IMG/VR virus record: IMGVR_UViG_3300027708_000034
Span: 18,332 to 82,331 of that record
Direction: 5' to 3' (one strand)
DNA: 64,000 nt
Source: a virus
Lineage: Duplodnaviria; Heunggongvirae; Uroviricota; Caudoviricetes
Part shown: one piece after another, positions 3,011-64,000 of the stretch
How positions within the stretch are numbered: position 1 is the first letter of the stretch
Layout: each line of letters begins with the position of its first letter
Position numbers and translations under genes: made by a program
The notes under the pieces: model-generated
What the model was told of the DNA's origin: nothing
What the model saw: only the letters and a program-made list of their open reading frames with translations
The model's database searches: none

Positions 3011-6000
3011 ATGAGCCGACAATGTATATCGAATTTACCAGCATTAACCAATGCTACTGCTGCTGAAACCAAATTCATCGTACTGGATAGTACTGTTGAG
3101 CAGACATTAACAGTAGCAAGAGCACAGGCGTTACTAGCAACTCCTGGTCCAACTGGACCGCAGGGACCGCAAGGTGTCATAGGATATGCCGGTAGTAGGG
3201 GATATTCTGGAAGTTTGGGATATGCTGGATCTGTTGGTCCACAAGGTCCTGCCGGCCCACAGGGTCCTATTGGGTTTACTGGCAGTCGTGGATTCTCGGG
3301 ATCAGTCGGCGCCCAAGGCCCTTTGGGATTTACGGGCAGCAGGGGATATGCGGGCAGCATTGGATATACAGGAAGTGCAAGCACCGCCTCCGGATATGCT
3401 GGCAGTAAGGGCCCAACGGGTCCACAGGGGCAAATAGGCTATGCTGGAAGTGCAGCAGCCAATGCTAACACCACACAAAATATCGCCGGCGGCGCTGCTG
3501 GATCCATTCCGATTCAAGCAGCCACCAGCAGTACTACATTTATTCCATTGGGTGCTGTAGGGACTCTACTATATTCAGATGGTACTACTGCTACTTGGAT
3601 TAGCACTAGTACTATAATACCAGCATCTTCGGGACAAGCTGGCAAGGTATTGGTTAACTGTATTGCAGCAAACAGCGCCACAACATACTATCCTGGATTG
3701 TTTTCAACTCCGGGAGTATACGACACTCCCGGAATTAGCACAAAACTATCATTTGTTGCATCCACAGGTGTCTTATCGGCACCTAAGATACAATTAGGCA
3801 ATGGAGCAGTAGTTCAAGATGGTACTAACGGATCATTGACCTTCGGCTCAGCAACATCTAATCAAGGGGTCAATGCTGTCGCTATCGGTAAATGTGCAGG
3901 TAAGACTAGCCAAGGCGCAGCCGCTATTGCAATTGGTTGCAAGGCCGGAGTTACTAGCCAAGCCGCTAACAGCATTATATTAAATGCATCTAGTCAAACT
4001 GTAAATTCCAGTGTGGCTGGATTTTTTGTAGCGCCTGTTAGACGTGATAGTACTTGTGCCGGAACAGCTTATTCAATATACTATAATACTGCCACTAGCG
4101 AAGTAACGTATTCTGCTACTGTTCCCGCTGGATATACGGGTAGTGCAAGCACCGCAGCTGGATATATAGGCAGTAGAGGGCCGACAGGTCCACAAGGTCC
4201 ATCGGGGCCTACTGGTCCAACGGGCCCACAAGGGCCATTGGGATATACTGGTAGTATTGGTCCGACTGGTGTAGGACTCAGTGGTTATTTTGGATCAAGA
4301 GGATACACTGGGTCAGTTGGCCCGACTGGGCCTCAAGGTGCTATCGGTTATACAGGCAGCATGGGAACCACAGGCACTACTGGTTATTCGGGGTCAATAG
4401 GGGTGCAGGGCCCACAAGGATATGCGGGCAGTAGAGGTTATACTGGTAGCCAAGGCTCCACTGGAACTACTGGTTATTCAGGGTCAATAGGTGCAGGCAT
4501 TGCACTCAAAGGCACCGCTGCAACTACAGGTACTGGATATTCGGGAATTTATGGAGTCGTACCCCAAGGAACTGCCGTACAAGGCGATGCTGTTTTAATC
4601 AGTTCAAACGAACATTTATGGATCAGTAGCGGTGTTAGTGGCGGCCCAAGCAACCCGTGCGGATGGTCAGACGGTGGAAGTCTAGCTGGACCGCAGGGAC
4701 CGCAGGGATATACAGGATCTGCTGGCGCAGTGGGGCCGCAGGGCCCGCAAGGAATTACCGGCCCGCAGGGACCACAGGGATATACAGGATCTGCTAGCAC
4801 TGCCAGTGGATATGTTGGCTCAACAGGACCAACCGGTCCAACTGGTCCGCAGGGGCCTATAGGGTATGCTGGATCTGCAGGTGCAGCCAGTACAATGAAT
4901 TTCAAAGGAACTGTACTTGGTGTTACCTGTTTGCCAAAAACAGGACAGACTGTTGGTAATGCATGGGTAGTTTACAATGGCGGTTCACCAGGTAGTGGAA
5001 AAAGTTCCAACGGATCTACTTGGTTCTACGTCAATGGCGCAAGTGATGCGGGAAGATGTGTAAGTTGCGGTCCTTATTATGGATTTATTTACATTGGAAA
5101 CTTTACCGGGTATACTGGTAGTAAAGGTGACCTAGGATATTCCGGATCAGCTGGGCCGCAGGGACCTTTAGGATACTCTGGCAGCGGCGGCGGCTTTGGC
5201 TGCAGAGGATATACTGGCAGCATCGGTTATGCTGGCAGTGCTGGATATTGGGGTTCTACAGGCTATGTAGGTAGCCAAGGGACTTCATTTAACATCGTTG
5301 GTACAGTAGCAGGATACTTAAACTTGCCCGGATCAGGATCTGCAGGTGACGGATATGTTACTCAGAACAACAATACTATTTGGTTGTATAAAGGCTATGC
5401 TGGATCTGCATATGCAGGTTGTGGCAGTGCATTGGGCAAACAATATAATGGATGGTTGGCTATCGGACTATTGGGTGGCACTGGTTATACTGGCAGTGCA
5501 GGATACAATGGTAGTGCAGGATATACAGGATCTGCTAGCACCCAAGCTGGTCCACAAGGACCAGCCGGATATTCAGGCAGTGCAGGAGCCGCAGGTTGCA
5601 AGGGCTGTATAGGATACACCGGCAGTGCTGGAACATCGGGTATAGGTACCAAAGGATGTATTGGATTTACCGGTAGTGCAGGTGCTGGTTACGGCGGTAG
5701 TATTGGCTCAACTGGTTATACAGGCAGTGGTGGCGCTGGATATACAGGAAGCATAGGTAACGCCGGTCCACAAGGACCAATTGGATTTTCGGGAAGTGGC
5801 GGCGCTGGATACAATGGTAGTAGAGGATATGATGGATCAGTTGGTCCTAGTGGCCCAACTGGACCTACTGGACCACAGGGGTGTATGGGATACACAGGAT
5901 CTGCCAGCACCGCATCGGGGTATGTTGGTTCAACTGGATTTACTGGCAGTATAGGTAATTTGGGATATTATGGTAGTATAGGTTGCAGGGGATATACCGG

Positions 6001-6691
6001 ATCATCTGGTGCATTACCGTGCTGTGCCGGCCCTTGTAAACTCTACGCAAGAGTTTGGTGTAGTGGTCAAGTTAGAGGACCATTGTTATATCCAACTCTA
6101 GTGGCCAGATCAGGTACATGTACTGTCTACATGTCCGGAGCAAGTCCGTCAAACTTGTTTAGCTTCTGTGCTGCTAACGGTAAAGTAACAATTGGCGGGG
6201 CAGTATGTGCCAACGGCAACATAACCTCAGCTCAAGGCGTCCGCGCCTGCGGGTCCGTAACATCTGTGCAAAAGATGTATGCCCAAGGTGCATTGTGTGT
6301 CACTGGAAAAATCTGTGCATCATCATGTATTTCTACGCTGGGTAGTGTGATTGCCGCGGGCAACGTCATTGGTTATTGTGCAGCTTCTGATAGAAGATTA
6401 AAACAAAACATTAGACCAATCGCAGACGCGTTGGATAAAATTAGAACACTACAGGGTGTATTGTACGACTGGACTGACGAGTTCATGGAAACAGTCCCGG
6501 ATAATATTTCCAGACATGATACCGGATTGATTGCCCAGGATGTTCAGCAGGTCCTACCAGAGGTAGTGTTCCTCAGAGAAAACGGATACTTGGGTATTAA
6601 GTATGACAAAGTCGTAGGATTGATTGTACAAGCAATCAACGAACTAGCAGAAAAAGTAGATGCTATAGAGAAAACTCTAGCATCGGAATAA
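3011..6691 (+). CDS. Collagen-like tail fiber/tailspike protein with C-terminal S74 intramolecular chaperone (auto-cleaving) domain
   Basis: Many G-x-y triplet runs ([20 protein letters not shown]...). The C-terminus has the SDRRLKQNI...LQGVLYDW...[15 protein letters not shown] signature of the phage fiber chaperone/peptidase S74 domain. Confidence 0.85.
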
Positions 6692-7093: not shown

Positions 7094-7702
7094 ATGACCA
7101 TACTTGAAACATTAAAAGTCCAACGCTGGGACGATCACAGATATTACCATCATAGCCGAATCAATCAATTCTTACATTTAATCAGTGCCCTATCATTCAT
7201 AGTAGCCTACATTTATCTGTTTATCGATCCTGTTGTCAGTGCTTATATAGCATGGTTGATATCCATGACCACAAGACAGGCAGGACATTTTTTCTTTGAA
7301 CCCAAAGACTACGACACTTACAATCAGGCCACACAAGATCACAAAGAGGCTATCAAGATTGGATACAACCTCAAACGCAAACGAGTATTGATCGCTTGCT
7401 GGTTGGCTGTGCCCGTGCTGGCATACTTTGATGCGGCATTGTTTAATTTTGTCATGCCAGACGCTGCTCCAGACACATTGCTGGATAGAATTGGATGGGG
7501 ATGGTTATGGCTGGCTGTGGTTGCTGTGGTGTTCCGCATGATACAACTCACTGCCATACAGAGCCGCAGAGTTGCTATAGTATGGTGTATCAAGATATTG
7601 ACAGATCCATTCCATGATGCTGTGATCTATCGCAAGAGCCCGATCTATTTGTTGAAGGGTCAGTTGATTGATCCTGACCTACGCCAAGACTACGAAGATT
7701 GA
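7094..7702 (+). CDS. Integral membrane protein (possibly DUF962/Mpo1-like)
   Basis: Several hydrophobic helices. N-terminal HHSRINQFLHLIS histidine-rich segment. Low certainty on family. Confidence 0.5.
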   Translation: MTILETLKVQRWDDHRYYHHSRINQFLHLISALSFIVAYIYLFIDPVVSAYIAWLISMTTRQAGHFFFEPKDYDTYNQATQDHKEAIKIGYNLKRKRVLIACWLAVPVLAYFDAALFNFVMPDAAPDTLLDRIGWGWLWLAVVAVVFRMIQLTAIQSRRVAIVWCIKILTDPFHDAVIYRKSPIYLLKGQLIDPDLRQDYED

Positions 7703-8691
7703 ACTGGAGTAAGGTTGCTGCGGAATATACGCCAGGCATTGTCCCAGGACCATCTCTGGCTACCCACTAGGACCTGATTGCGATCTAACTTCAACGCTGC
7801 GTCTACAGCATCTTTAAGGTTACCACGGATACAACCAGTGACACCATCGTCGACTACATCTTCAGGTCCTTGGCAAGGATATGCTGCTACAGGGGTGCCG
7901 CAGGCCATGGCTTCGATCATGACTATACCAAATGTTTCCCATCGGCTGGGAAATACAAACACTTCTGCATTGGAATAATAACGTGCCAAGTCTATACCGG
8001 TCTTAAATCCTGTAAAGTGTACATCAGGATAACGCTTGCGATATGTTTCTAACATGGGTCCATCGCCTACCATGATCTTCTGATATCCTGGATAGTCCAG
8101 TTCGAAGAAATCTTCCAAATTCTTTTCTTTGCTGACACGGCTAACACACAGTAGATATTTGCCAGGAAAGTCTTCTCTCAAATCCGGTCGGAATATATCA
8201 CGATCAACACCGCGAGTCCAAGGAACCACCTCGCCACGGAATCCATGTCGTTCTAATTCTCGTACCATGCTGTCAGTAGTGGTCAACACACGGCCACTGT
8301 GCTTATGGAACCAACGAACGAATCTCCATGTGATCCATTCTGGTATACCAAACAGTTTCTTTAGACCTTCAGGAAACTTAGTATGATAAGCGGTATTGTG
8401 CCTAATATTATATAATGAAAGATACTTTCGAGACCACAGACCAAGAGGACCTTCTGTCGCGATGTGGATATAATCTGGATTGATCTCCGCAATCTTCTTG
8501 CCCAAGTTCCGGGGATAGGCAATCTTGACTTCGTTATATTTAGGGCAATCAATGTAGCGGAACCACCCGGGATGAAGCACCACAAAGTTATAACCGTCCA
8601 GAACCGCACATGTCTCAATATTCTTATATGTCGTGACAACGCCATTGATCTGATCCGGTAGATTATCAGTTATTATTAATATCGTTTTCAT
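7690..8691 (-). CDS. Glycosyltransferase family 4 (GT-B, GT1 superfamily)
   Basis: C-terminal VFVFPSRWETFGIVMIEAMACGTPV (EX7E motif region) typical of GT4 retaining glycosyltransferases. Confidence 0.8.
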   Translation of the reverse strand: MKTILIITDNLPDQINGVVTTYKNIETCAVLDGYNFVVLHPGWFRYIDCPKYNEVKIAYPRNLGKKIAEINPDYIHIATEGPLGLWSRKYLSLYNIRHNTAYHTKFPEGLKKLFGIPEWITWRFVRWFHKHSGRVLTTTDSMVRELERHGFRGEVVPWTRGVDRDIFRPDLREDFPGKYLLCVSRVSKEKNLEDFFELDYPGYQKIMVGDGPMLETYRKRYPDVHFTGFKTGIDLARYYSNAEVFVFPSRWETFGIVMIEAMACGTPVAAYPCQGPEDVVDDGVTGCIRGNLKDAVDAALKLDRNQVLVGSQRWSWDNAWRIFRSNLTPVQSS

Positions 8692-9578
8692 TGTATCTTC
8701 AATTTAATGAAATCAACAATGTGTTGTGCCATGTCCTGCCCACAATGCTTATCCATTCCTTTGAATCCAGGACTGCTGTTTGCCTCACATACTTTATACC
8801 CATCTTTATCGAATAATAAGTCAACTCCTGCTATCTGTAGGCCTAGCACACGAGCAGTTTCTCTTGCGATATAATCAATCTCCGGCGTGATATTAAATAA
8901 TTCACCGTGACCGCCTTGGCTGATATTAGCGCGGAAGTCTCCTTCTGCCCCTGTTCGTTTCATGGCTACGACGGTTTTACCACCTATCACCCATACTCTT
9001 AAATCAGTTCCTGGCATGGCATCTACAAATTCTTGTATGATCAATGTTTTCTTTAATGCTATGCTTGATAGCAATTCCATTAGACCTTCGAAAATTTTTC
9101 GTGTCTCGCATAGATAAACTGTCTTACCTCTACTGCCGCTAGTGGCTTTTACTACGCATGGAAACCCAATCTCTTTTTCAATCAACTCAATATCAACATC
9201 TCCGTTGACCAATATAGTTTTAGGAATAGGTAAACCTGCGCTGGCCAATACTTGACTGGTCATTAATTTATCACTAACTATTGCCACACTTTCGGTATCG
9301 TTAATAACCGGCACGCCTAACTTTTCAAACTGACGCATCAATGCCAGTGTAAAATAAGCACTACCTGATCCGGTTCGGCTTAATATCAAATCTGGTAAAT
9401 CGATCTTTTCGCCCCGATATCTGATACTTTTAGAATTTCCACGATTGACAATAATATCAAAATATTTTGGTTCAAGTATTTTGCTATCTATTCCGTTCTG
9501 TTGAAGACATTCAATCAGTCTGGTATTTTCATAAGCAGTAATTCCACTAGCGTGATGAAGTATCCATACTCGTTTCAT
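8688..9578 (-). CDS. rimK: RimK-like ATP-grasp ligase (alpha-L-glutamate ligase family)
   Basis: Colinear with E. coli RimK: DFRANISQGGHGE and EANSSPGFKGM motifs at the ATP-grasp C-terminus. Size 296 aa. Confidence 0.85.
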   Translation of the reverse strand: MKRVWILHHASGITAYENTRLIECLQQNGIDSKILEPKYFDIIVNRGNSKSIRYRGEKIDLPDLILSRTGSGSAYFTLALMRQFEKLGVPVINDTESVAIVSDKLMTSQVLASAGLPIPKTILVNGDVDIELIEKEIGFPCVVKATSGSRGKTVYLCETRKIFEGLMELLSSIALKKTLIIQEFVDAMPGTDLRVWVIGGKTVVAMKRTGAEGDFRANISQGGHGELFNITPEIDYIARETARVLGLQIAGVDLLFDKDGYKVCEANSSPGFKGMDKHCGQDMAQHIVDFIKLKIQ

Positions 9579-12737: not shown

Positions 12738-13409
12738 TTATACCACTTCTGGGAACAGGACTTCGTCCACAAACCGCTTCATCTTAGATTCATCTATGCC
12801 CATACTGACCATGCTGCGTATGACATGGGGGTTTTGCTTTTGATAATAGCAATAACGGTTCTGCGCCATATGGAAATCTGCTAGATCCTGCTGCGTATTG
12901 CCTACATTTAATAGATAATAATCCAAGGTTCTTGTGGCCAGCTCGCATAGATTATTCAACTCTTCCTCGGTTGATACATTGCCAGCAGCAACCATGTTGG
13001 GACTAAAAATTTGCTGAGCCCATTCTGGCAGATTCCTAGACTTACCCCACTCGTAAAACAATGCTTCGGTCCCGAACCACTTCATCATAGGATGGGCAGG
13101 ATCTCCTGCTGCGCTGAAGTCGCAGAATGCACCTGTGATTTTATTGGGACCGCAGACTGCATCAAAGCCCCAAATAGGGCTAGGATCGTTAAAGTGTGGA
13201 AATACTGTAGAGTGCAGTATATAGATATTGTGGCTCTCCCTATGGTCTACGATTTCCACATGGGCTCTGCGATATCGCGGGCTGGTCCAAAGGTCATTGT
13301 GCCATTCATAATCACTACTGATCTTGCCGTGTACAGCCTCACCGGTGGCATTGAATCTCGATTTGATATCCTCAGCTAATTTTTCAATTTTGTCCCAAAC
13401 GTTCGCCAT
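12738..13409 (-). CDS. Ferredoxin-dependent bilin reductase (PcyA/PebS/PcyX family)
   Basis: WTSPRYRRAHVEIV...ILHSTVFPHFNDPSPIWGFDAVCGPNKITGAFCDFS aligns with the PcyA core (YQTPQFRKMHLEL...ILHCVMFPEP...[20 protein letters not shown]). Confidence 0.85.
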   Translation of the reverse strand: MANVWDKIEKLAEDIKSRFNATGEAVHGKISSDYEWHNDLWTSPRYRRAHVEIVDHRESHNIYILHSTVFPHFNDPSPIWGFDAVCGPNKITGAFCDFSAAGDPAHPMMKWFGTEALFYEWGKSRNLPEWAQQIFSPNMVAAGNVSTEEELNNLCELATRTLDYYLLNVGNTQQDLADFHMAQNRYCYYQKQNPHVIRSMVSMGIDESKMKRFVDEVLFPEVV

Positions 13410-13926
13410 ATGATTCCATTATTTTAATCGCCCAGTCAAAGGCTATGTTAGCTTCATCTCCCATGTCGTCTGACAGCATACTACGCATATTAGTCATCAA
13501 CATTTTAGGATCTTCAAAGTCTAAATGTGAGTGCGGTGCGTCCACGATCTTCTTGATCATCTGCCCACCAAACAAGTCGCCCATATGCCAAGTGTATAAG
13601 TGTGCCATGATGCGTTTAGGATCATCTAGTGATCTAATGTAGCTGGCGTAATCCTTTGTCTCTTGCTTATATGTATTGTAACTACCCGTGGGTTTATCCA
13701 TGCTTTGGTAATCATCCATTATCAGTCCTGCCCGTTCAATCCCGGGCAATGCATTTAGCAATCCTGCTTTTCGAGCAGCATGTTCGATCTCTTTATACCA
13801 AAGTTGTTTTTGATAGGTAAAATCTACCCATAGTTCAAAGGGCAATGTTTTGTCAAATACTGCTTTCATGAAAGCAGTGCTTTCGGCAGCAGTGTGTTTG
13901 TCTTTGGTGAGATCTTTTAGGCTCAT
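13384..13926 (-). CDS. Heme oxygenase (short phage-type HO)
   Basis: LKDLTKDKHTAAESTAFMKAV matches HO-1 LKEATKEVHTQAENAEFMRNF. AHLYTWHMGDLFGGQMIKKI matches [20 protein letters not shown]. Confidence 0.85.
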   Translation of the reverse strand: MSLKDLTKDKHTAAESTAFMKAVFDKTLPFELWVDFTYQKQLWYKEIEHAARKAGLLNALPGIERAGLIMDDYQSMDKPTGSYNTYKQETKDYASYIRSLDDPKRIMAHLYTWHMGDLFGGQMIKKIVDAPHSHLDFEDPKMLMTNMRSMLSDDMGDEANIAFDWAIKIMESYGERLGQN

Positions 13927-14225
13927 TCCTGTACTGCCTTAGTGACCAAAGGATGACCGTTTAGTCTAGACAGCTCAGTGGCCTCTGCGACTTTCTGTTC
14001 GGCGATTTCATAACTGTAGATGCCCACTGCCGCACTACCTTGTTCATGAATCTGATAAGTCAATCTAATAGCAGATTCAGTGCTTATAGAAAACACCTTA
14101 ACCAGCAATGCTATCACAAATTCTACAGGAGTATAATCGTCGTTCATGACGACTACTTTATATTTGCTAGGTTCTTTTAACTTCCTAGTAACTCTTGTTT
14201 TTTCTTCAATTGCAGTATCAGTCAT
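13923..14225 (-). CDS. clpS: ClpS ATP-dependent Clp protease adaptor (N-degron recognin)
   Basis: YKVVVMNDDYTPVEFVIALLVKVF...GHPL is colinear with E. coli ClpS ([24 protein letters not shown]...EHPL). Confidence 0.85.
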   Translation of the reverse strand: MTDTAIEEKTRVTRKLKEPSKYKVVVMNDDYTPVEFVIALLVKVFSISTESAIRLTYQIHEQGSAAVGIYSYEIAEQKVAEATELSRLNGHPLVTKAVQE

Positions 14226-14269
14226 CTAATTCTTTCTTTATAAATGGGGGAGATTTACTCCCCCGATGT

Positions 14270-14704
14270 TTAATCGCCTTTGATAGTTAGTACACGCGGC
14301 TTCAATGCTTCGGGTACCACGCGATCTATTTTAATGGTTAAAACACCATTTTTAATAGCGCCTTCGCCTACGATCATATGTTCAGCCAGTGTCCACGAAC
14401 GAGTAAAGTCGCGGAATGCCAAACCACGGTGTAGAAATTCAGCATCGACATCACTGTCTTTGCTGCGAACACCTTTAACGATCAATTGGTTTTGATCGAT
14501 CTCAACCGCAACTTCATCCTTGGCAAAACCTGTCACAGCGATTTCGATCTCGTAAGTATCTTCATCGTGCTTGACGATATTGTAAGGTGGATAGCTGTTG
14601 TTGATTTGATTTGCAAAACGATTTTCGAAATCGTTGAACATGGTATCAAAACCTAGTAGTGCTCTATTAAGAGCATGGGTGTCAAAACGTACTAATTGTG
14701 TCAT
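14270..14704 (-). CDS. Small heat shock protein Hsp20 (IbpA/IbpB-like)
   Basis: FDTMFNDFENRF...YPPYNIVKHDEDTYEIEIAVTGFAKDEV...VPEALKPRVLTI is colinear with E. coli IbpA (alpha-crystallin domain, IxI-like C-terminus). Confidence 0.9.
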   Translation of the reverse strand: MTQLVRFDTHALNRALLGFDTMFNDFENRFANQINNSYPPYNIVKHDEDTYEIEIAVTGFAKDEVAVEIDQNQLIVKGVRSKDSDVDAEFLHRGLAFRDFTRSWTLAEHMIVGEGAIKNGVLTIKIDRVVPEALKPRVLTIKGD

Positions 14705-14791
14705 ATTTTTCTCCTTTAAAAGTAAGTGACAACATTGGGCATTGTGCCCTATAAAGTGGGACCCTAAATAGGTATCCCACGATATTATTTA

Positions 14792-16693
14792 TTATACAGT
14801 TTCCTTAGCCTCTGCGTCAACGACTCCATCAGCCGCATCCTTTTTAGCCTGTTCTTCAGCCTTCTTGGCTGCTTCCTCGGCTTGGTTTTTCTTAGCAGTG
14901 ACTGGGTTCATGGCTTGATAAAGTTTAGGAATAGTATCTTGGATGAGTTTTACATCATCGCCCGACATGGCATCCTCAAGCGCCTTGACCGCGTCTTCAG
15001 CAGTAGCACGTTCTTCTTCAGTGAGTTGGTCACTGTATTTTTCTAGATCCTCTTTGAATCCGTTCAATGTACCTTCTGCACGATTGCGTTCCTCAATCAA
15101 CTCGCGCTGCTTCTTATCTGCTTCAGCATTGAGTTCAGCATCTTGGACCATGCGATCGATTTCCTCTTTGGTCAATCCGCTGTCGGACTTGATAGTGATC
15201 TTGTTCTCTTTGCCTGTGCCTTTATCAGCTGCTTTGATATTCATGATACCGTTGGCATCGATATCTAGCGTGACTTCGATCTGTGGAACACCTTTGCGAG
15301 CAGGTGGGATGCCTTCTAATTTGAATTCGCCCAACAATTTATTATGCTGGACGAATTCACGCTCGCCTTGGAATACTTTGATGTCCACTGCAGATTGATT
15401 ATCTTCGGCTGTTGAGAACACTTGACTATGCTTGGTAGGAATAGTGGTATTCTTTTGAATCAACTTGGCCATCACCCCGCCCATGGTTTCGATACCAAGA
15501 CTCAATGGGGTAACGTCTAGCAATAGAACGTCTGTACGTCCACCACCTAGCACATCGCCTTGGATAGCAGCACCTGCGGCCACTGCTTCGTCTGGATTGA
15601 CGTCTTTGCGAGGAGCCTTGCCAAACAACTTCTCAACTGTTTCAACTACCTTAGGCATACGTGTCATACCACCGACAAGGATAACTTCGTCGATATCGCT
15701 GGCTGTGACTTTGGCATCTGCCATAGCTGTCTTGCATGGCTCGATACTGCGTTGGATCAGTTCGTCTACCAAACTTTCCAATTTAGCACGGGTCAACTTA
15801 ACGTTCATGTGTTTAGGACCTGATGCATCTGCTGTGATGTAAGGCAAGTTAACATCGGTCTGTGCTGAACTTGACAGTTCAATCTTGGCCTTTTCTGCTG
15901 CCTCTTTAAGACGTTGTAGTGCCAACATGTCTTTCTTGAGATCAACGCCGTTGTCCCGCTTGAATTCATCGACCAAGAAGTCCATGATACGTTGGTCAAA
16001 GTCTTCACCACCCAGGAATGTATCACCGTTGGTGCTTAGTACTTCGATTTGTTTCTCGCCATCAACATTGGCAATTTCGATGATGGATACGTCAAATGTA
16101 CCGCCACCCAAGTCATATACAGCAATCTTGCGATCACGCTTGTCTGCTTTATCAACACCATAGGCCAGTGCAGCAGCAGTAGGTTCGTTGATGATACGCA
16201 ACACTTCAAGTCCAGCGATCTTACCTGCATCTTTAGTTGCTTGACGTTGCTGGTCGTTGAAGTAGGCAGGAACTGTGATAACAGCCTGCGTGACTTCGTG
16301 TCCCAAATAGTCCTCAGCAGTCAGTTTCATCTTGCGAAGTACTTCAGCTGAAATCTGTGGTGGGGCAAGTTCTTGTTCGTTGGCCTTGACCCAAGCATCG
16401 CCATTACTGGCTTCGATGATTTTGTAGGGCATCAGATCGATGTCCTTCTGCACAGCCTGTTCTTTGAACTTACGTCCAATCAAACGCTTGGCTGCATAAA
16501 TTGTGTTTTTTGGATTGGTGATTGCTTGTCGTTTGGCACTTGCACCTACCAGAATTTCATCGCTAGCATATGCAATGATGCTGGGAGTAGTCCTCGCACC
16601 TTCGCTGTTTTCGATTACTTTGGGGATACCGTTTTCAATAACGGCTACGCATGAATTGGTTGTACCGAGGTCGATACCGATTACTTTACTCAT
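14792..16693 (-). CDS. dnaK: Molecular chaperone DnaK (bacterial-type Hsp70)
   Basis: N-terminus [31 protein letters not shown], and an acidic, lid-like C-terminus. Full length 633 aa. Confidence 0.95.
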
Positions 16694-18321: not shown

Positions 18322-18542
18322 GTCTGCTTCTTAGGATCTTCGATTTTAGCGTCGATACAGGTGCCTTCTAGTATGGTCATCTTTCCGGCATTGGCCTGCT
18401 CAGCAACTTCCAGCATATGTATTTTTTGACTGTCGATGCTGGCTCTGCATTGTGCCTCACTTCGATAAACTGTTTGGGCCTGCATAAAATTACAGTTGCC
18501 ATTCATACAGATGAACAGCACAGGTATAAAAATTTCAATCAT
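18318..18542 (-). CDS. Small hypothetical protein with hydrophobic N-terminus and four Cys
   Basis: ORF in an ATGA-overlap chain. IFIPVLFICMNGNC N-terminal hydrophobic segment. Confidence 0.4.
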   Translation of the reverse strand: MIEIFIPVLFICMNGNCNFMQAQTVYRSEAQCRASIDSQKIHMLEVAEQANAGKMTILEGTCIDAKIEDPKKQT

Positions 18543-21784: not shown

Positions 21785-23020
21785 CTATGCGGCAGGTGTG
21801 TCAACGGCTTTTTTATTAAATTCCATCAAGGCGTTGCCTTTGCCGCCCACAGTGTTTTTATCTATAACAATTTTAACCAGTCCTCGTTCCACTAGATCCA
21901 TGGCTTCAAACTGATACGGCAGTAATATTTTTTCGATGATGTTTTTCAATCCACGAGCGTTAGTTTTAAGTTCCTTGGCTTTCTCAGCTATCTGTGATAA
22001 TGCTTCTTTTTCAAACATTAGTTCGATGCCATCTAATTTAAAAATGTATTGATACTGTTTGACAATGCTGTTCTTTGGCTCGTCCAATACCTGCACGAGA
22101 TTTTCGATAGACAATTCATCCACGTTGGTGATCAATCCAAACCTGCCTACAAACTCAGGAATCAATCCGTACTGTATAAGGTCCTTGGTGCTGACTAATC
22201 TGTAGGGGTTTTCTACCACTGTTTTATCTACAGAAGCTGAGTGGAATCCCACGCTGCGAGTATCCATACGTTTTTCGATCAGCTTGTCTAAGCCAACAAA
22301 TGCCCCGCCGCATATAAACAAGATGCTGCTGGTATCGATTTCCTGCATGTCACCGCCCGGGTGCTTACGCTTGCTGGTAGAAGGGATACGCATGATGCTG
22401 CCTTCGATCATTTTTAAGAGTGCCTGCTGTACGCCTTCTCCTGACACATCTCTTGTTATGCTGACGTTTTCGCCTTTACGTGCGATTTTATCTATCTCGT
22501 CGATATAAACAATACCCCGAGATGCTTTGGCTACATCACCATCAGCTTCGTTGATTAGTCGTGTTAGAATGCTTTCCACATCATCACCCACATAGCCCGC
22601 TTCTGTGATACCTGTGGCATCACATATGACAAAAGGCAGATCCAAATACTCGGCAATCTTTCTTGCCAGCATGGTCTTGCCGCAACCAGTAGGTCCTAGT
22701 AATAGTACATTGGTCTTTTCTAGTCGTATTTCTTTACTTGGATTGTTGATGCGCTTGAAGTGTTGACTGACTGCTACACTAAGAGCAATTTTAGCATCGT
22801 CCTGTCCGACAACATAATCGTCTAGGTAATCTTTGATCAACGTGGGATTCAAAAGATTTTTATGATCGTGAGGTTTTTTACCCTTTTCATCATTTAGTAT
22901 TTCCGAGCATAGGTCTATGCAGTCATTGCAAATAGCAGCATGTTCACCGACTATAAGTTTTTCAACATCTTCTTTGCTCTTACCGCAAAAATCGCAATTA
23001 TGATTTGTTTGTGTCGTCAC
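21785..23020 (-). CDS. clpX: ClpX ATP-dependent protease ATPase subunit (N-terminal C4 zinc finger plus AAA+ domain)
   Basis: CDFCGKSKEDVEKLIVGEHAAICNDCIDLC zinc-binding domain. LLLGPTGCGKTMLARKIAEYLDLPFVICDATGITEAGYVGDDVESIL is colinear with E. coli ClpX. Confidence 0.9.
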   Translation of the reverse strand: MTTQTNHNCDFCGKSKEDVEKLIVGEHAAICNDCIDLCSEILNDEKGKKPHDHKNLLNPTLIKDYLDDYVVGQDDAKIALSVAVSQHFKRINNPSKEIRLEKTNVLLLGPTGCGKTMLARKIAEYLDLPFVICDATGITEAGYVGDDVESILTRLINEADGDVAKASRGIVYIDEIDKIARKGENVSITRDVSGEGVQQALLKMIEGSIMRIPSTSKRKHPGGDMQEIDTSSILFICGGAFVGLDKLIEKRMDTRSVGFHSASVDKTVVENPYRLVSTKDLIQYGLIPEFVGRFGLITNVDELSIENLVQVLDEPKNSIVKQYQYIFKLDGIELMFEKEALSQIAEKAKELKTNARGLKNIIEKILLPYQFEAMDLVERGLVKIVIDKNTVGGKGNALMEFNKKAVDTPAA

Positions 23021-25794: not shown

Positions 25795-26202
25795 TTATGA
25801 AGGCCTAGTTTCTTTCAATACCTTTAGCACACCTTCTAAACGGGCAATGTCTTCATAAGTTGCATCGTTTTTCATTCGATTACACCGCATACAGATAACC
25901 CATAGATTAGCCAAGTCATTAGTTCCGCCAATGCTTTGGGGAATTAGATGATCAGTGCTGGGAGTTTCGTAGTCCTTCTTACCGTGATTGTTTTTACCTA
26001 AACCATAATTTAGTTCAGTACCACAGCAAGGACAGTGTGTTTGACACTTGGCCAAAAATGGCTCGTATTCCACACCCCAAGTAATGCTGCTCGATTTAGC
26101 CCAAACTGGACGTAGGTCCCCGGTGGCACATACCTGAGCATATAGATCCCTACTCAGATATGTTTCCGGATTATACTTTGGATATAACTGGAATGTGGAC
26201 AT
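25795..26202 (-). CDS. HNH endonuclease
   Basis: CPCCGTEL...DHLIPQSIGGTNDLANLWVICMRCNRMKND: HNH H-N-H and Cys zinc knuckles. Confidence 0.65.
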   Translation of the reverse strand: MSTFQLYPKYNPETYLSRDLYAQVCATGDLRPVWAKSSSITWGVEYEPFLAKCQTHCPCCGTELNYGLGKNNHGKKDYETPSTDHLIPQSIGGTNDLANLWVICMRCNRMKNDATYEDIARLEGVLKVLKETRPS

Positions 26203-27209
26203 TATGCTTCCTCCGTCATTTCTTCTTCAACGTGAACACTTACCTTGGGCATGGAAATATCAAAAGGCTTGTCGCATAATTTGTTGCCTTTGGCCTTCTC
26301 ATAGATGTCAATGATACCTGAAGCAATCTTTTCACGAACGCCCATACCTTTATAGTTTGTAGGATATGTAGTTTGGAATGCATGGTTAATGCCCAAGTGC
26401 AGATCTTTATTGGTCTCTGCATAATTACTACATTCAAAAACAACGTCATTGAATGTACTGTCGTTCCACAAGCCGTCATCTACCATGATCTCTCGTAGTT
26501 TCAAAAAGCCCAACGCTGTAGGCATTTCAATTTTATCCTGCGGCCAGAATTGACGCATCTTGTTCAGCACTAATGTCAGTGCGCCTGCGCCGTAGTTTTC
26601 GTAAGCATCTTGTAAATGGCTAACGTGTGTGATACAACCAGGAGAACGTTTCTTGTAGGCAGTTTCGCAGTTAGCATCAGTTACTGCTTTTTCCAAAGCA
26701 ATGGCATGCTTGTCGCCCATCATGATTTTTTGCTGATGGATAAAGAACTTGGCCATGGGCTCGCTGTCAGTGTTCAATGCCAATAATTGGATTGACTCAA
26801 CATTTTCATCGGCACTTTCAACATAAAAACATGGGATATGTGTGAGCATGCCGTACTTCAGTAACCAAACAGTCATATGCTGTTGACCATCTGCCCCATA
26901 GTATTTGTCCTCAATGGGATCATAACGGCATTGAAGTGGAGTTACGCATCGGATATCCCACTTACCGAGCAACTTTTTCATGTGCTTAGGTTCAGGCCAC
27001 CGCTGGCGTTTATAATTGATAAGAATTTTATCTGCTGGTACCCAACCAAATTTCAGAACATCCTGGACGGACACGTCTGCTTTATTTTGGACTTTTTCCC
27101 CAATGCGTTTGGAGATTTGTTTAGCTACATCCGTGATAGGAATTCGCTTGTCTGCTAGACCCGCCGAGGGATCAAATGGAGCCAAAGAGGCCGTTGCTGT
27201 CTTACTCAT
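26202..27209 (-). CDS. ParB/sulfiredoxin-fold protein with a DGQHR-like motif (ADGQQHM)
   Basis: ILINYKRQRW...YYGADGQQHMTVWLL resembles the DGQHR-domain (DndB/DpdB-like ParB nuclease superfamily). Translationally coupled to the HNH gene (shared ATGA). Confidence 0.35.
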   Translation of the reverse strand: MSKTATASLAPFDPSAGLADKRIPITDVAKQISKRIGEKVQNKADVSVQDVLKFGWVPADKILINYKRQRWPEPKHMKKLLGKWDIRCVTPLQCRYDPIEDKYYGADGQQHMTVWLLKYGMLTHIPCFYVESADENVESIQLLALNTDSEPMAKFFIHQQKIMMGDKHAIALEKAVTDANCETAYKKRSPGCITHVSHLQDAYENYGAGALTLVLNKMRQFWPQDKIEMPTALGFLKLREIMVDDGLWNDSTFNDVVFECSNYAETNKDLHLGINHAFQTTYPTNYKGMGVREKIASGIIDIYEKAKGNKLCDKPFDISMPKVSVHVEEEMTEEA

Positions 27210-27295: not shown

Positions 27296-27324
27296 ATTAT
27301 ACAGTCGAAAGCATTAAAAGTCAA
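27296..27324 (-). promoter_or_regulatory. Sigma70-type promoter with extended -10 (minus strand TTGACT-N15-TGTATAAT), upstream of the ParB-like gene
   Basis: -35 RC of 27319-27324, -10 RC of 27296-27301, preceded by TG. Located immediately after the porin terminator. Confidence 0.5.
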
Positions 27325-27353
27325 TAAAAAAGGCAGTAAAAACTGCCTTTTTC
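27325..27353 (-). terminator. Rho-independent terminator of the porin gene (hairpin aggcagt-aaaaa-actgcct plus T-run on the minus strand)
   Basis: 7-bp GC-containing stem, then U-tract, 17 nt downstream of the porin stop. Confidence 0.6.
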
Positions 27354-27369: not shown

Positions 27370-28260
27370 TTAGAAGCTATATTCTAAACCAACGCCATAG
27401 CGCGTGGTATCAGAGCTTGCATCTTCCAACAAGTAACGAGCCAATACTTTGGTATTTTTACCTATGTCATAGTTAAGACCCACGTTGTAGGCCTTGGTAG
27501 AACTGACTTCACCGTAGCTGGCCATTGCGGTCAATTTTGGCATCACTGTTTGAGTAACACCAACGCTTCTACCTGTGGTTGCTACACCGCTGACTGTGTC
27601 GTCGGAATATAGACCAAATACAGTTGTACCAGTCTTAGCCAGGGTGTACTTAACGCCATAGGCATTGGTTAGACTTGTTACACCGTTGTCAAAACGAGCA
27701 TATGTAAGTCCAACTGGACCAGCAGCGAAAACTAAACTGGCAGTATAAGAGTTTGGTGTACCAGCGACTTCACTGTTGCTGTATACATAGTTGGCTGTCA
27801 AACCATCTACGAATGTATTGGTAGATAGGAATATGCCATTGCTCAAACGTGTACCTTGATATGCATGGATAGTGCCTGCACTGGATCCAAACAAATCACC
27901 ACCCATGGCATCAAACGAGTCAAGTGCTTTGGTTAGGGAAGTCTTATCACGACCCAATCCCATTGTGCCATACTCATTCTTAAGTCCGATCAAGGCAATG
28001 CGATCGCCAATGGTGCTGGCGGTTGGTGTATCAATACCCACACCTACTTCGATTTGACCAAATGCTGATAGTCCATCACCGAGGTTGTCGCCTGCCTTGA
28101 AACCAAGACGGCTTTTGTCGTTGGTTAAAGAAGTAACAGCGGCTGCTGTGCCAACGGTGGAGGATTCCTCGTAGACACGGCCCATGCCGTAAACGGTGAC
28201 ATCGGCTTGGGCTAATCCCATGAATCCGATTAATGCTGCAAAGATTGCAAGTTTTTTCAT
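27370..28260 (-). CDS. Outer-membrane general porin (Gram-negative porin, Porin_4/OmpC-like beta-barrel)
   Basis: Signal peptide MKKLAIFAALIGFMGLAQA. Alternating amphipathic beta-strands. C-terminal ...YGVGLEYSF with terminal Phe (OMP sorting signal). DVTVYG start typical of neisserial/betaproteobacterial porins. Confidence 0.8.
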   Translation of the reverse strand: MKKLAIFAALIGFMGLAQADVTVYGMGRVYEESSTVGTAAAVTSLTNDKSRLGFKAGDNLGDGLSAFGQIEVGVGIDTPTASTIGDRIALIGLKNEYGTMGLGRDKTSLTKALDSFDAMGGDLFGSSAGTIHAYQGTRLSNGIFLSTNTFVDGLTANYVYSNSEVAGTPNSYTASLVFAAGPVGLTYARFDNGVTSLTNAYGVKYTLAKTGTTVFGLYSDDTVSGVATTGRSVGVTQTVMPKLTAMASYGEVSSTKAYNVGLNYDIGKNTKVLARYLLEDASSDTTRYGVGLEYSF

Positions 28261-28348
28261 TTTTCAATTTCCTTTATTTTATACAGTCTGTGTGACCATA
28301 ATATAGTATATATGCCTGCGAGGATCGCAGTCAACAAAAACAAGCGCC

Positions 28349-32479: not shown

Positions 32480-32574
32480 TTTGGTTGTTTTGATAATAAG
32501 GTAAGTCCTACCTCACCAAAGCCTAAGCGGCGATGGAATATAACTCGTCGTTTGCAGTTATGAAATTTGCTTGA

Positions 32575-32802
32575 TTAACGGTCATCGCCTACCGTGTTGC
32601 CGTCGCCACTATCTAGCCCAATCGATCCTGTGTCAGGCCCAACATAAAGAAACTTTGGAATAGGATTATTAAATCCTTTAAATCCTGTAAAACGATATCC
32701 TAGATTAGGAATATCCCAAAGTAAAGGTGCCCAACACACTCTTTTTACTGTGTCATCTTTGTCTACTACAACAAAATACTGTTTTACTTTTTCCAATTTC
32801 AT
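32575..32802 (-). CDS. Small hypothetical protein (ATG at 32802; the track shows a TTG start one codon upstream)
   Basis: ORF. Preceded by a GC-rich structured leader. Confidence 0.4.
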   Translation of the reverse strand: MKLEKVKQYFVVVDKDDTVKRVCWAPLLWDIPNLGYRFTGFKGFNNPIPKFLYVGPDTGSIGLDSGDGNTVGDDR

Positions 32803-32894
32803 CAAATTTCCTTATGGTGGACCTGCCGGGCACTGCCCCCGGGTCTTGGCCTCCTTCGTTTTGAAGGGATTACAACAATAACTCTTACTTATCT

Positions 32895-58641: not shown

Positions 58642-59547
58642 CTAGAATATTATAGAACCTGATGCAGTGAATATGTAAAATATGGTACTGCTTGTGACAT
58701 ATTGATTGGCATTTGTAGATATTGCTGCTGCGTATGTTATTGGATAACGCACTATAACCACACCACTACCGCCAGTGGCTCCAAGATTGCCGCCACCTGC
58801 TCCACCACCGGTATATGGTTGACCGTTGCCGCCTGCTAAACTCGTACCAGATCCGCCGGATGACACACCATTTCCTCCACCACCCAAAGCACCAGTTCCG
58901 CCAGTGCCGTTGGCCATGCCACCGCCACCACCTGCAAAGTAAACTTGGCCACCACTAATTTCCCCAACACCTGCTGCTGTTGCGGTTGGTACACAAATAA
59001 ATGTAGTGGCCACGCCAGCACCGCCAGCACCGCCAGTATTTGCTCCACTAGAGCCAGCGATACCAATTCCACCCACTCCTCCTGCTCCACCACCGCCACC
59101 GCCTGCACTATTGGCAGTGATACAGCTAGTCCTAGCTCGACCACCTGCAAATCCTTGTCCCGCGATACCAGCACCGCCCGCAGTACTGCTACGGCCGCCG
59201 CCCCCGCCACCAGAGCCGCCTGCAAGCCCTGCAGTATTGAACACGCCTCCACGTCCACCGCCAGTGGCTGTTACTGCATCGATAGAAGATGCGCCGCCGC
59301 AGGTCTTTACACCGCCTGGTCCAACAACAATGCTGATTGGCGTGCCTTGGACTACTGCTAAAGTTCCAGTCAATACTCCGCCAGCGCCACCAGCTGCAAT
59401 ACCTGCATTTCCATCACCGGATTGGGGTGACCCACCGCCGCCTGCCACCAAAAAATACTGGATCGAAGGCGGTGGATTTCGTATGATAAAATCTGATATG
59501 CTAAAAGGGCCACCCCCTATTGTAACGCCGCCACCGCCGATGATCAT
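58642..59547 (-). CDS. Glycine-rich protein, MIIGG family member (301 aa)
   Basis: N-terminus MIIGGGGVTIGG. C-terminus FYIFTASGSIIF shared with paralogs. Confidence 0.55.
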   Translation of the reverse strand: MIIGGGGVTIGGGPFSISDFIIRNPPPSIQYFLVAGGGGSPQSGDGNAGIAAGGAGGVLTGTLAVVQGTPISIVVGPGGVKTCGGASSIDAVTATGGGRGGVFNTAGLAGGSGGGGGGRSSTAGGAGIAGQGFAGGRARTSCITANSAGGGGGGAGGVGGIGIAGSSGANTGGAGGAGVATTFICVPTATAAGVGEISGGQVYFAGGGGGMANGTGGTGALGGGGNGVSSGGSGTSLAGGNGQPYTGGGAGGGNLGATGGSGVVIVRYPITYAAAISTNANQYVTSSTIFYIFTASGSIIF

Positions 59548-61746: not shown

Positions 61747-62649
61747 TTAGAAACTTATATATCCCGATGCAGTGAATATATAAATTCTATTATTGCCCGA
61801 CAACACTGGCGTTATAGTCGTGCCCGTAATTGTCGCACTGGTATAAGAAGATGGGTAACGGATGATAACGATCCCAGAGCCGCCTGCGCCGCCAGTGTTG
61901 TTAAACTCAGAGCCAGCACCGCCACCTCCACCACTATTGGCAGTTGCGTTTGATCCGCTGAGGTTAGTATTGGCACCTGCGCCGCCGCCGCCACAGCCGC
62001 CAGTTCCAGGTCTCGATCCGTTGTGCGTAGCGCCTCCACCACCACCTGCGTAGTAGGTTGCTGTGCCAGAAATAGAAGACAAAATTCCAATACCACCATT
62101 ACCTCTTATCGCAGTGTTTGCGTCGTTATATGAAACACCTGCCCCGCCTGCGCCGCCGCCGCCGCCACCCACGTCTAGATTGTTATTACTATCTGATCCG
62201 CCAGTGCCACCAGCAAATCCTTGGCCACAGGTTCCGCCGCCACCCGCAGCTCCAGCACTGGCGCCAACACCGCCGCCGCCACCAGACCCCCCAGCAACAC
62301 CAGCTAGTCCAACACTCGACCTATAAGAGCCGCCGCCGCCGCCACCTGCTGAAGTGATTGTAGAAAAAGCTGAAGGATTGCCACTAGATCCAGCAGGTCT
62401 ACAACCGTTGCCGCCTGAAGCAGTCCCTGGCCCACCAGGACCAATAGTCACTGTGTAACTGATACCTGCTGATACAGCAAAACCAACGGCAGTTCTAGCA
62501 CCACCAGCGCCGCCGCCGCCACCTGACTGCGTACCGCCGCCGCCGCCTCCGGCAACTACTAGATATTCTACCGTAGGTGGGGCAGTTGGAGCAGATGTAT
62601 CTCCTATTTGAATAAACCCACCCATCGTAATTCCAGCACCGATAATCAT
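61747..62649 (-). CDS. Glycine-rich protein, MIIGG family member (300 aa)
   Basis: N-terminus MIIGAGITMGG. C-terminus RIYIFTASGYISF. Confidence 0.55.
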   Translation of the reverse strand: MIIGAGITMGGFIQIGDTSAPTAPPTVEYLVVAGGGGGGTQSGGGGGAGGARTAVGFAVSAGISYTVTIGPGGPGTASGGNGCRPAGSSGNPSAFSTITSAGGGGGGSYRSSVGLAGVAGGSGGGGGVGASAGAAGGGGTCGQGFAGGTGGSDSNNNLDVGGGGGGAGGAGVSYNDANTAIRGNGGIGILSSISGTATYYAGGGGGATHNGSRPGTGGCGGGGAGANTNLSGSNATANSGGGGGAGSEFNNTGGAGGSGIVIIRYPSSYTSATITGTTITPVLSGNNRIYIFTASGYISF

Positions 62650-62692: not shown

Positions 62693-64000
62693 TTAGAATT
62701 TAATAGTTCCTGATGAAGTGGTCCACGAGTATGTTCTATAACCGCCAGCAACAGTGACAGTTGCAAAAGTAGACGATGTTGCCTCGGCATATACATCGGA
62801 ATAGCGAATGACCACTATACCACTGCCGCCGTCGCGCACACTGCTTCCACCATTGCCGGTATTTGCTGAGCCAGATACCAGCTGTGCGCCTCGTCCACCA
62901 GCACTAAATGTAGCATTACCAATTGAACTAAACAAGCCTGCCCCCGGAGTAAAGGAAACTGCGGCTCCGCCAGCGCCACCACCGCCGCCACTATCCCAGC
63001 CACCATTTGAGTTTATTGCTGGTGCCGTGCCACCAGCAAATCCTTGTCCAGTTGTACCGGCGCCGCCAACATTACTGCCGCCGTTGATATCGCCACCGCC
63101 ACCACCTGATCCACCCGCGCCGCCACTATTATTTCGTGTCCCGCCATAGCCGCCGCCTATAGCAGTCAAGCCAAATGCACTGGAATTTACACCTTGGGTT
63201 CCATTGCTGCCTCCGCCGGTTCCTGTATTATCTGGACCAGTACCTCGAGGTCCGCCAGCACCAACCGTGATCGTATACGTTGTTCCAGCAGATATCGCAA
63301 GGCTACTGGAAGTTAAGAATCCGCCGCCACCGCCGCCACCACCTACATCAACGTCAGATCCACCACCACCTCCGCCTGCAACTATCAAGTATTCAATTGT
63401 AGGCGTAGGTATTGGAACTGGTGCAACTGACAGTGTTCCTGATGCAGTAAACACATGAGCAACGTAAGAAGTTCCACAAACAGTATATGAGTAAACAGAT
63501 CCGCCAGTCGCTCGCTGGATTAAGGATTGGTATCTAACGATGACAACTCCACTGCCGCCATTACCACCGCCGTGTGTAGTATCTCCACCAGCACCACCAC
63601 CTCCACCGCCAGTGAATGCTGTAGCCGCCGTTCCATTGGCATTGACTCCCCCAGCACCGCCGCCGCCCAGTCCTCCCGAACCTGCTGGACGACCTGCATT
63701 GACGGTATTGATTCCACCACCTCCGCCACCTGCAAAATATAAACTGGTGCTAGTGGTCTGTCCTATGCCTGCAGATACTGCTGTACTGGTGGAAATTATC
63801 GTAGTCAATGTACCGATACCACCGTTACCGCCTACTAGAGTGGTACCAGCAGCGCCAACTCCACCCGCGCCACCACCACCTCCGCCTGCGTAGTTTTGTC
63901 CAGTAGTTTCTCCATTGCCGCCCGCAAATCCCTGTCCAGCTACGCCAGCGGCACCCGTTTGTCCAGTACCGCCACCTCCCCCGCCACCACCGCCACCGCT
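62693..64000 (-). CDS. Glycine-rich protein, family member, 5'-truncated by the window edge (the frame stays open to position 64000; the track's TTG start at 63808 is an edge artifact)
   Basis: The minus-strand frame continues without a stop through 63809-64000, encoding further GGGGGG-rich sequence. C-terminus TSSGTIKF. Confidence 0.5.
   Translation of the reverse strand, partial: SGGGGGGGGGGTGQTGAAGVAGQGFAGGNGETTGQNYAGGGGGGAGGVGAAGTTLVGGNGGIGTLTTIISTSTAVSAGIGQTTSTSLYFAGGGGGGINTVNAGRPAGSGGLGGGGAGGVNANGTAATAFTGGGGGGAGGDTTHGGGNGGSGVVIVRYQSLIQRATGGSVYSYTVCGTSYVAHVFTASGTLSVAPVPIPTPTIEYLIVAGGGGGGSDVDVGGGGGGGGFLTSSSLAISAGTTYTITVGAGGPRGTGPDNTGTGGGSNGTQGVNSSAFGLTAIGGGYGGTRNNSGGAGGSGGGGGDINGGSNVGGAGTTGQGFAGGTAPAINSNGGWDSGGGGGAGGAAVSFTPGAGLFSSIGNATFSAGGRGAQLVSGSANTGNGGSSVRDGGSGIVVIRYSDVYAEATSSTFATVTVAGGYRTYSWTTSSGTIKF

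Follow-up and report, generated by a model that had tools for sequence, protein, structure and literature searches.

Why should a lytic-type phage carry a gene for a bacterial outer-membrane porin? The question is raised by a 64,000-nt stretch of viral DNA (positions 18,332 to 82,331 of IMG/VR record IMGVR_UViG_3300027708_000034, Caudoviricetes; hereafter the window), in which one open reading frame (ORF) encodes a predicted porin. An initial annotation, made from the sequence letters, had described this ORF as a full-length porin with a signal peptide and a terminal LEYSF, and the ORF is exactly as described. Our best explanation is that the gene product is a working general-diffusion porin, owned by the phage and not by a host contig, that aids the nutrient import of infected cells; taken as a whole, with this mechanism included, we give it an even chance. 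The sections below set out the evidence on its identity, its ownership and its likely use to the virus.

The gene encodes a predicted 16-strand porin

The protein begins with MKKLAIFAALIGFMGLAQA, followed directly by DVTVYG, and ends in GVGLEYSF. Read from the sequence, its N-terminal segment has the make-up of a signal peptide (positive charge in the n-region, a hydrophobic core, an AXA cleavage site), and it can be aligned with that of Neisseria PorB (4aui). The initial annotation had proposed a Pfam search and a beta-barrel prediction as checks on its reading, and both came out in its favour. In a profile search the porin scored 38 bits with Pfam Porin_1, whose curated threshold is 23.7 bits (E=1.8e-9), and nearly all of its homologues have precomputed matches to Porin_4 and/or Porin_1. 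Among solved structures the best match by sequence was Neisseria PorB, followed, when the family profile was used, by Delftia Omp32 and Burkholderia Omp38. The NCBIfam model for PorB equivalogs (NF040479) reached 42.8 bits against a cutoff of 480, over residues 1-118 only. Judged by its sequence, the porin resembles PorB in its N-terminal part without being an orthologue of it.

AlphaFold2, run with 20 family members, gave a model that comprises an N-terminal helix and 16 beta strands, with a mean predicted local distance difference test (pLDDT) score of 76 and a predicted template modelling (pTM) score of 0.68. Between strands 5 and 6 the model places a 31-residue loop with two short helices, which is the position of L3 in classical porins. 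A Foldseek search of the Protein Data Bank (PDB) returned trimeric general porins with a probability of 1.00 (E ~1e-15, TM-score 0.75-0.77), and the betaproteobacterial ones ranked first.

Residues R51, R87 and R138 are invariant in the family and, in the profile alignment, fall on the arginine cluster of Omp32 (R38, R75 and R133). Two acidic residues, D114 and D117, are conserved and both lie on L3, whereas L3 of Omp32 is not known to have such counter-charges. The terminal phenylalanine, F296, is invariant in all 20 sequences of the family alignment (A1). L2, the latching loop, is highly conserved, which fits a trimer and is no proof of one. Because sequence, predicted fold and hallmark residues agree, we identify the gene product as a porin.

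The porin gene resides in phage genomes

Contamination from a host contig, which the initial annotation had raised as a danger to its reading, is excluded by the recurrence, synteny and composition of the locus. The identical porin protein occurs on contigs from six JGI samples and, wherever a contig reaches them, is flanked by the same phage genes as in the window, namely those for a GDSL-type hydrolase and an 80-aa ORF upstream, and a 335-aa ORF and an HNH endonuclease downstream. On nine IMG/VR contigs a porin of 67-73% identity lies in synteny, near genes for rubrerythrin, a 131-aa protein, ClpX and ribonucleotide reductase (RNR). A profile-derived scan found a relative of the porin on at least 86 IMG/VR viral contigs of up to 349 kb. 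The GC content around the porin is 0.43, which is that of the window.

Pairwise ratios of nonsynonymous to synonymous substitution rates (dN/dS) had a median of 0.14 (range 0.06-0.49; 154 pairs of viral copies 80-99.5% identical), and the porin is therefore maintained by selection inside phages. Several features of a viral auxiliary gene, host-derived and non-structural, are present together, with the gene on viral contigs, flanked by viral genes, recurring across viruses and under purifying selection.

The gene is also accessory and moves around the genome. Of 80 loci with the neighbouring 131-aa gene, two have the porin within 10 kb, a result that shows variable porin position and not absence; contig 3300027969_000039 gave both L049 and L184, so that the porin lies elsewhere in that genome. 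Such an accessory, mobile gene might be a non-adaptive passenger, or its presence here an artefact of host and phage assembly. We consider this very improbable, given an identical protein in the same phage neighbourhood in six samples, synteny in nine IMG/VR contigs, the presence of relatives on at least 86 viral contigs, the low median dN/dS, the matching GC content, and the conservation of promoter, ribosome-binding site and terminator described below.

The statement of the initial annotation that porins are unusual in T4-like genomes holds for cultured phages, and does not extend to uncultured lake phages, in which the at least 86 contigs show the gene to be common. Among the 50,697 phage records of INPHARED, tblastn with the porin gave no match at E ≤ 1e-3 and megablast with the 8 kb around it gave none either, and PHROGs holds no family for it. 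Larger protein collections contain homologues in numbers far above chance, with 197 at E ≤ 1e-3 in a 90%-clustered collection and 5802 in a 50%-clustered library. A literature search returned no paper specific to this porin family in phages; 'Moraphage' (PMC12619734) was considered and set aside as an unrelated lineage.

A porin group observed to date in phages alone

A profile of 20 family members was compared with 1.84 billion cluster representatives of the 50%-clustered library, and 72 clusters matched at E ≤ 1e-30. The top ~70 representatives are 285-320 residues long and closer to the porins of the viral loci than to any sampled bacterial porin. From about rank 72 onwards lengths rise to 320-360 residues and the preference is reversed toward bacterial porins. 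All 12 neighbourhoods inspected in the upper group are phage-like (the window, L010, L012, L014, L042, a 357-kb contig, L045, L046, L199, L202, L206 and L207). The first bacterial neighbourhood, L044, has genes for ribosomal proteins S9 and L13, argC and tandem porins, and belongs to P0195 at rank 76.

A midpoint-rooted neighbour-joining tree, built without support values and with genomic context checked for a minority of clusters, placed all viral-context porins in one half and all named bacterial porins in the other. The bacterial half includes Hydrogenophaga and other Comamonadaceae, Aquitalea, Crenobacter and several metagenome-assembled genomes (MAGs). Monophyly of the phage porins is likely on these data, and they appear to form a porin group of their own, with no member yet observed outside phages.

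Among the named bacterial porins found, none exceeds ~39% identity to the phage porins; over the full length such relatives reach ~33% at most, and over the N-terminal third 37-45%. Given this low identity, we take the transfer to be old. The initial annotation had noted a resemblance to betaproteobacterial and neisserial porins, and the closest solved and curated relatives are indeed such porins. It had also read this resemblance as a hint toward the host clade. The betaproteobacterial flavour is real, but it reflects an old origin, carries no usable host signal and points only weakly to a donor.

GTDB was scanned with two profile-derived peptide patterns only, so that the list of nearest bacteria is incomplete, and a GTDB scan with the single porin protein gave no match. 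The best GTDB match of the pattern scan lies on a 70-kb contig of a 'Haliscomenobacter sp.' MAG (L014, NZ_JBBAKG010000031.1), whose porin is 49% identical to that of the window. The same contig encodes an RNR small subunit with 74% identity to that of the window, along with further genes common to the window, and is probably a phage contig mis-binned into a bacterial genome.

Porin genes of some related phages adjoin genes for nutrient uptake

In six distinct loci (L010, L137, L143, L178, L179 and L184) pstS lies directly downstream of the porin; its product is a phosphate-binding protein of the PstS type that matches PBP_like_2 at E=6e-38, and three of the six loci are on contigs of 231-303 kb. 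A second partner is tctA, the gene for a tripartite tricarboxylate transporter permease, which is near the porin in all four of the deep-branching viral loci fetched. In L046 a single overlapping string comprises tctC, an unknown gene, tctA and the porin. L045 has tctA, a gene for a 300-aa signal-peptide protein and then the porin, as well as other genes common to the window, and in L206 and L207 tctA is within ~1 kb of the porin. To our knowledge, tct genes have not been discussed as phage auxiliary genes.

Because the porins of sister lineages adjoin pstS or tctA, we favour a role in nutrient uptake over superinfection exclusion. Of the two functions suggested by the initial annotation, a change in permeability gains indirect support from this linkage, and replacement of a receptor gains none. 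That the porin raises the nutrient import of infected cells seems to us as likely as not. Host RNA polymerase would transcribe the gene early from a sigma70-like promoter, and the precursor would be exported by Sec and inserted by the beta-barrel assembly machinery (BAM) of the host. The extra channels would then increase, or keep up, the passage of small hydrophilic nutrients, such as phosphate, carboxylates and other solutes, across the outer membrane. This influx would feed periplasmic binding proteins and inner-membrane transporters, of which some related phages encode PstS, or TctA with or without TctC. The added supply would support replication of a large phage in nutrient-poor lake water.

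Predicted external loops are trimmed, and L1, L2 and L4 are conserved

The viral porins are shorter than those of the bacterial half of the tree by a median of ~26 residues, and the whole loss falls in predicted external loops. The shortening amounts to 4 residues in L1, 2 in L3, 3 in L4, 6 in L5, 3.5 in L6, 5 in the region around L7 and 5 in L8, while strands and periplasmic turns have the same size in viral and bacterial porins. In the window porin L5-L8 are reduced to 2-5 residues each. Conservation within the family is highest in L1, L2 and L4, where the mean column entropy is ~0.6 bits against 1.0-1.5 bits in most strands. Bacterial porins under phage or immune pressure usually show the opposite, namely variable external loops. 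We speculate that trimmed external loops may save coding space, and may also leave other phages little surface to bind.

The second of these possibilities leads to superinfection exclusion or surface remodelling, in which a loop-trimmed porin would replace or dilute the host porin that serves this phage or its competitors as receptor, while keeping the membrane permeable. Exclusion of this kind has been proposed for the Lc porin of temperate phage PA-2. The confinement of the ~26-residue shortening to external loops would suit such a role, as would a local drop in identity between the window and L009, its closest long relative. Nucleotide identity between the two is 90-99% downstream, falls to 59-74% exactly from the porin stop and is ~83% again upstream, which suggests either allele exchange with a recombination breakpoint or locally faster divergence. 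Several properties of the locus fit exclusion poorly, however. Membrane-resident porins persist through the lytic cycle, so that removal of a receptor would be slow; the highest conservation, and not the highest variability, is found in L1, L2 and L4; dN/dS is low; and linkage to pstS or tctA would not be expected. The phage moreover appears lytic, with no sign of a temperate lifestyle in the window or the inspected flanks, where integrases were not searched systematically. We regard exclusion as the main function as unlikely.

Returning to nutrient import, we put forward a broader model only tentatively. It holds that a phage-only porin lineage has long diversified in large freshwater T4-like phages and there may provide the outer-membrane step of a virus-encoded import route through the whole envelope, with porin and PstS for phosphate and porin with TctC/TctA for carboxylates, and that loop trimming may at the same time deny competitors a landing site.

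The porin cassette and the timing of its expression

In the window's lineage the porin forms the monocistronic unit, flanked by promoter and terminator, that the initial annotation had described. The annotation's own terminator for the gene was recovered as a hairpin and T run that begins 17 nt past the porin stop codon. Directly beyond it a second, strong sigma70-like promoter appears to mark the start of the downstream unit, and so bounds the porin cassette (Table 1). Of 67 distinct viral loci, 61 have a hairpin and T run after the porin stop; the stems differ in sequence while their pairing is kept.

Upstream of the gene, TTGACC/T-17/18-TATAAT recurs before the orthologues of independent viral contigs (L002-L009), the closest relatives of the window. 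The leader of these orthologues runs from TTGACC/T through 17-18 nt to TATAAT, then a TATAAA-containing box and AAAGGAAAT, and AAAGGAAAT is kept in nearly all inspected viral loci. The cTGTATAAA motif singled out by the initial annotation is present and is conserved at the same place before orthologues, but it is neither a T4 late promoter nor enriched. The CTGTATAAA box has 30 sites in the window (at most one mismatch) against 22 expected. The T4 late consensus TATAAATA is enriched there, with 10 sites where 4.2 were expected, a count never reached in 100 shuffles; the box upstream of the porin reads TATAAAAT and not TATAAATA, and a T4 late promoter for the porin was rejected. A Pho box was likewise rejected, as the sequence offers a single CTGTAT half-site, downstream of the -10 element. 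The sigma70-like promoter, which the initial annotation had missed, appears to be a better-supported signal than the TGTATAAA box, and an early-type promoter most likely drives the porin in the window's lineage.

A third possible role is permeabilisation of the outer membrane for phage exit or the timing of lysis, by analogy with CsgGF pores. Related aquatic T4-like phages carry this other outer-membrane pore, for which a part in lysis timing has been proposed (PMC9004378), and in 51 loci the porin follows structural-looking, probably late genes. A 16-strand porin would nonetheless pass small solutes only and would not breach the membrane; the cassette of the window has an early-type promoter and its own terminator; and the genes adjoining the porin include none identified as coding for an endolysin, holin or spanin. 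We judge a lysis role improbable.

Nutrient import as the reason for the gene has its own difficulties, and the following points weigh against it or against the porin reading on which it rests. Confidence of the AlphaFold2 model is low in the L3 region (pLDDT ~54). Only 6 of 83 closely related loci have pstS, and neither pstS nor tctA occurs within the 64-kb window, where the immediate neighbours of the porin offer no hint of its function. Porins are normally abundant and stable, so that the gain from extra copies is uncertain. Matches to the sigma70 consensus are not above chance in this AT-rich stretch (5 found against 4.4 in shuffled sequence), and the promoter draws its weight from its conservation only, not from the match itself. 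Early expression is also not a property of every lineage: in 51 of the 83 related loci the porin follows genes for a PAAR protein and a 643-aa structural-looking protein, and a regex pattern found no sigma70-like promoter before the porin in most of these 51. Porin expression may therefore be late there, and regulation of the gene may differ among lineages.

In the 51 loci (L141-L201) the protein whose gene, with that of the PAAR spike-tip protein, precedes the porin is ~640 aa long and rich in Ala, Ser and Thr (for example 3926-5857 in L170 and 8019-9926 in L042); it matches no Pfam family, and the window lacks a homologue of it. Between the genes of these loci lie conserved elements of their own, TATACT..CTAAGTAAG and a small hairpin. 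A different hairpin is found in L010, L137, L143, L147, L175 and L178, ~60 nt upstream of the porin ATG and between promoter and ribosome-binding site. Its stems vary while pairing is kept (gcctgag..caggc versus accccaaaagggt), and four of these loci (L010, L137, L143 and L178) have pstS directly downstream of the porin. This hairpin may be a regulatory leader.

Relation to known porins and phage-encoded channels

The closest structural comparisons are with Omp32 of Delftia acidovorans (1e54/2fgq), Neisseria PorB (4aui, 3wi4) and Omp38 of Burkholderia pseudomallei (8jto), whose 16-strand barrel fold is predicted here for the window porin. All have in common a DVT(V/L)YG N-terminal motif, an SRLGFKG strand, the arginine cluster and the terminal Phe. 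The window porin differs from them in its low identity (18-22% in Foldseek alignments), in a mature length of 277 residues against 310-340 with external loops cut, and in being phage-borne and in a separate group.

Porins carried by phages are known from Lc of phage PA-2 and NmpC of the cryptic prophage DLP12, which are enterobacterial OmpC/OmpF-type porins of temperate phages, expressed from the prophage. The window porin resembles them as a phage-borne general porin encoded by an accessory ('moron') gene; unlike them, it belongs to a lytic-type T4-like phage and to a betaproteobacterial-like and not an enterobacterial branch. A lysogenic-conversion porin of the Lc/NmpC type was rejected on the lack of an INPHARED tblastn match, the T4-like context and the betaproteobacterial closest relatives.

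Marine viral contigs carry glnK-amtB-ompL cassettes with a porin of a different family (Gazitua et al. 2021, PMC8115048). There, as here, a porin on uncultured viral contigs stands beside a nutrient-uptake gene and is read as an auxiliary gene. Viral OmpL, however, is of another family, derives from Flavobacteriales and is tied to ammonium transport (PMC8115048), whereas the window porin is of the Porin_1/Porin_4 type and the partners in its relatives are PstS or TctA. CsgGF pores occur in aquatic T4-like phages of SAR11 and OM43 (PMC9004378). Those of pelagimyophages and of the OM43 phage Melnitz have in common with the window porin a role as outer-membrane channel, which for the porin is a prediction, and a T4-like aquatic phage with a permuted tmRNA; CsgG itself is a nonameric lipoprotein secretion channel with no sequence or fold relationship to the porin. 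Several porin-annotated proteins of uncultured Caudovirales in UniProt/BFVD, among them A0A6J5L4P1 and A0A6J5LP82, are likewise predicted porin barrels (Foldseek E 6e-16 and 6e-10 for these two). At 18-22% identity and, for the two, lengths of 420 and 285 aa they are not of the same sequence family, and we found no study of them.

Phage-borne porins as such were therefore already known, and what is new here is the apparently phage-only group, the trimming of its external loops and the recurrent linkage to PstS or TctA. Phage auxiliary genes for nutrients (pstS, phoA, amtB) are known for the periplasm and inner membrane, and the outer membrane has hardly been considered as the limiting step. 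Since the porin recurs beside pstS or tctA, some phages that infect bacteria of oligotrophic lakes may invest in this first barrier too. If so, outer-membrane permeability would be a trait manipulated by viruses, and infection would re-plumb nutrient entry from the outside in. The barrel, compact at 277 residues, would moreover offer a porin scaffold minimised by nature.

The phage genome around the porin

In agreement with the initial annotation, the genome is supported as that of a T4-like phage, even if the core structural genes of T4 are not within the window. The window encodes both RNR subunits, an exonuclease, lectin-fold and tail-fibre-like proteins, and a 1049-aa virion protein that shares 52% identity with its counterpart in the T4-like Synechococcus phage S-CAM1; the T4 late consensus is enriched as described, and relatives encode a PAAR spike-tip protein. 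Porin-bearing relatives on contigs of 243-357 kb keep the order exonuclease, pectate-lyase-like protein, RNR and ClpX, and also encode Hsp20 and ribosomal protein bS21. The porin-bearing freshwater phage is probably very large.

Because the phage carries a porin, its host should have a Gram-negative envelope. A cyanobacterial host, prompted by the S-CAM1-like virion protein, the heme oxygenase and the bilin reductase, was considered and not adopted: the bilin reductase is only 24-28% identical to cyanophage PcyA, against 40% to that of Pelagibacter phage Mosig, and the gene set also resembles that of the large freshwater phages of Chen et al. 2020.

Table 1. Features of the porin cassette and of the host-type genes in the window
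Feature	Position	Strand	Basis or remark
Porin coding sequence, 296 aa and TAA stop	27370-28260	-	ORF list, Pfam Porin_1, AlphaFold2 model, Foldseek
Predicted Sec signal peptide MKKLAIFAALIGFMGLAQA, residues 1-19, predicted cut after AQA	28204-28260	-	Sequence reading, AlphaFold2 helix 2-16, PorB alignment
Mature barrel, residues 20-296 (277 residues), 16 predicted beta strands, end GLEYSF	27373-28203	-	DSSP of AlphaFold2 model
Loop L3, residues 107-137, predicted constriction loop	27850-27942	-	AlphaFold2 helices 108-118 and 128-131, conservation
Sigma70-like promoter, TTGACT-18 nt-TATACT	28305-28334	-	Consensus scan, 10/12 matches; kept in relatives
CTGTATAAA box in 5' leader	28278-28286	-	Conserved upstream of orthologues
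Ribosome-binding site AAGGA, 9 nt before ATG	28270-28274	-	Read from sequence
Intrinsic terminator hairpin, 12-bp stem and 4-nt loop, then T run	27326-27353	-	
Next sigma70-like promoter, TTGACT-17-TATAAT, 11/12 matches	27296-27324	-	Also in L009
Bilin reductase	12738-13409	-	40% identity to the enzyme of Pelagibacter phage Mosig
Heme oxygenase	13384-13926	-	
ClpS	13923-14225	-	
Hsp20	14270-14704	-	
DnaK	14792-16693	-	
ClpX	21785-23020		

Host-type genes in the window are those for DnaK, Hsp20, ClpX, ClpS, rubrerythrin, rubredoxin, an SPFH protein, heme oxygenase, bilin reductase and a RimK-like ligase, together with a permuted tmRNA. The block at 12738-16693 and ClpX look like a phage kit for proteostasis and tetrapyrrole metabolism. 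In having ho1, a pcyX-like gene, Hsp20 and a cofF/RimK-like gene together, the window is reminiscent of the large freshwater phages described by Chen et al. 2020. The RimK/cofF-like ATP-grasp ligase (8688-9578, minus strand; Pfam RimK, E=2e-45) adjoins a group-1 glycosyltransferase (7690-8691, minus strand).

Directly downstream of the porin, the 335-aa ORF, which has no family match, and then the HNH endonuclease gene occupy 25795-27209 on the minus strand. The pair occurs only in the window, L009 and the identical-porin contigs and is absent from L001-L008, and is probably a mobile insertion. A DGQQH motif in the 335-aa ORF may be of the kind seen in ParB/DUF262-type nucleases.

A permuted (two-piece) tmRNA gene lies at 32521-32892 on the minus strand (Rfam tmRNA_permuted 122.6 bits, alpha_tmRNA 67.8 bits), with the tag peptide ANDELYSIAA according to ARAGORN. 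Similar permuted tmRNA genes are reported in pelagimyophages and phage Melnitz (PMC9004378). The tail-fibre gene at 3011-6691 on the plus strand encodes 1226 residues, with collagen triple-helix repeats and, at the C-terminus, an S74 intramolecular chaperone domain. It is among the few ORFs that oppose the strand used by most genes, and is richer in GC (0.49-0.52) than the window as a whole (0.43). Three Gly_rich_2 paralogues (phrog_2295; 58642-59547, 61747-62649 and 62693-63808, minus strand) have a local GC content of 0.53-0.56.

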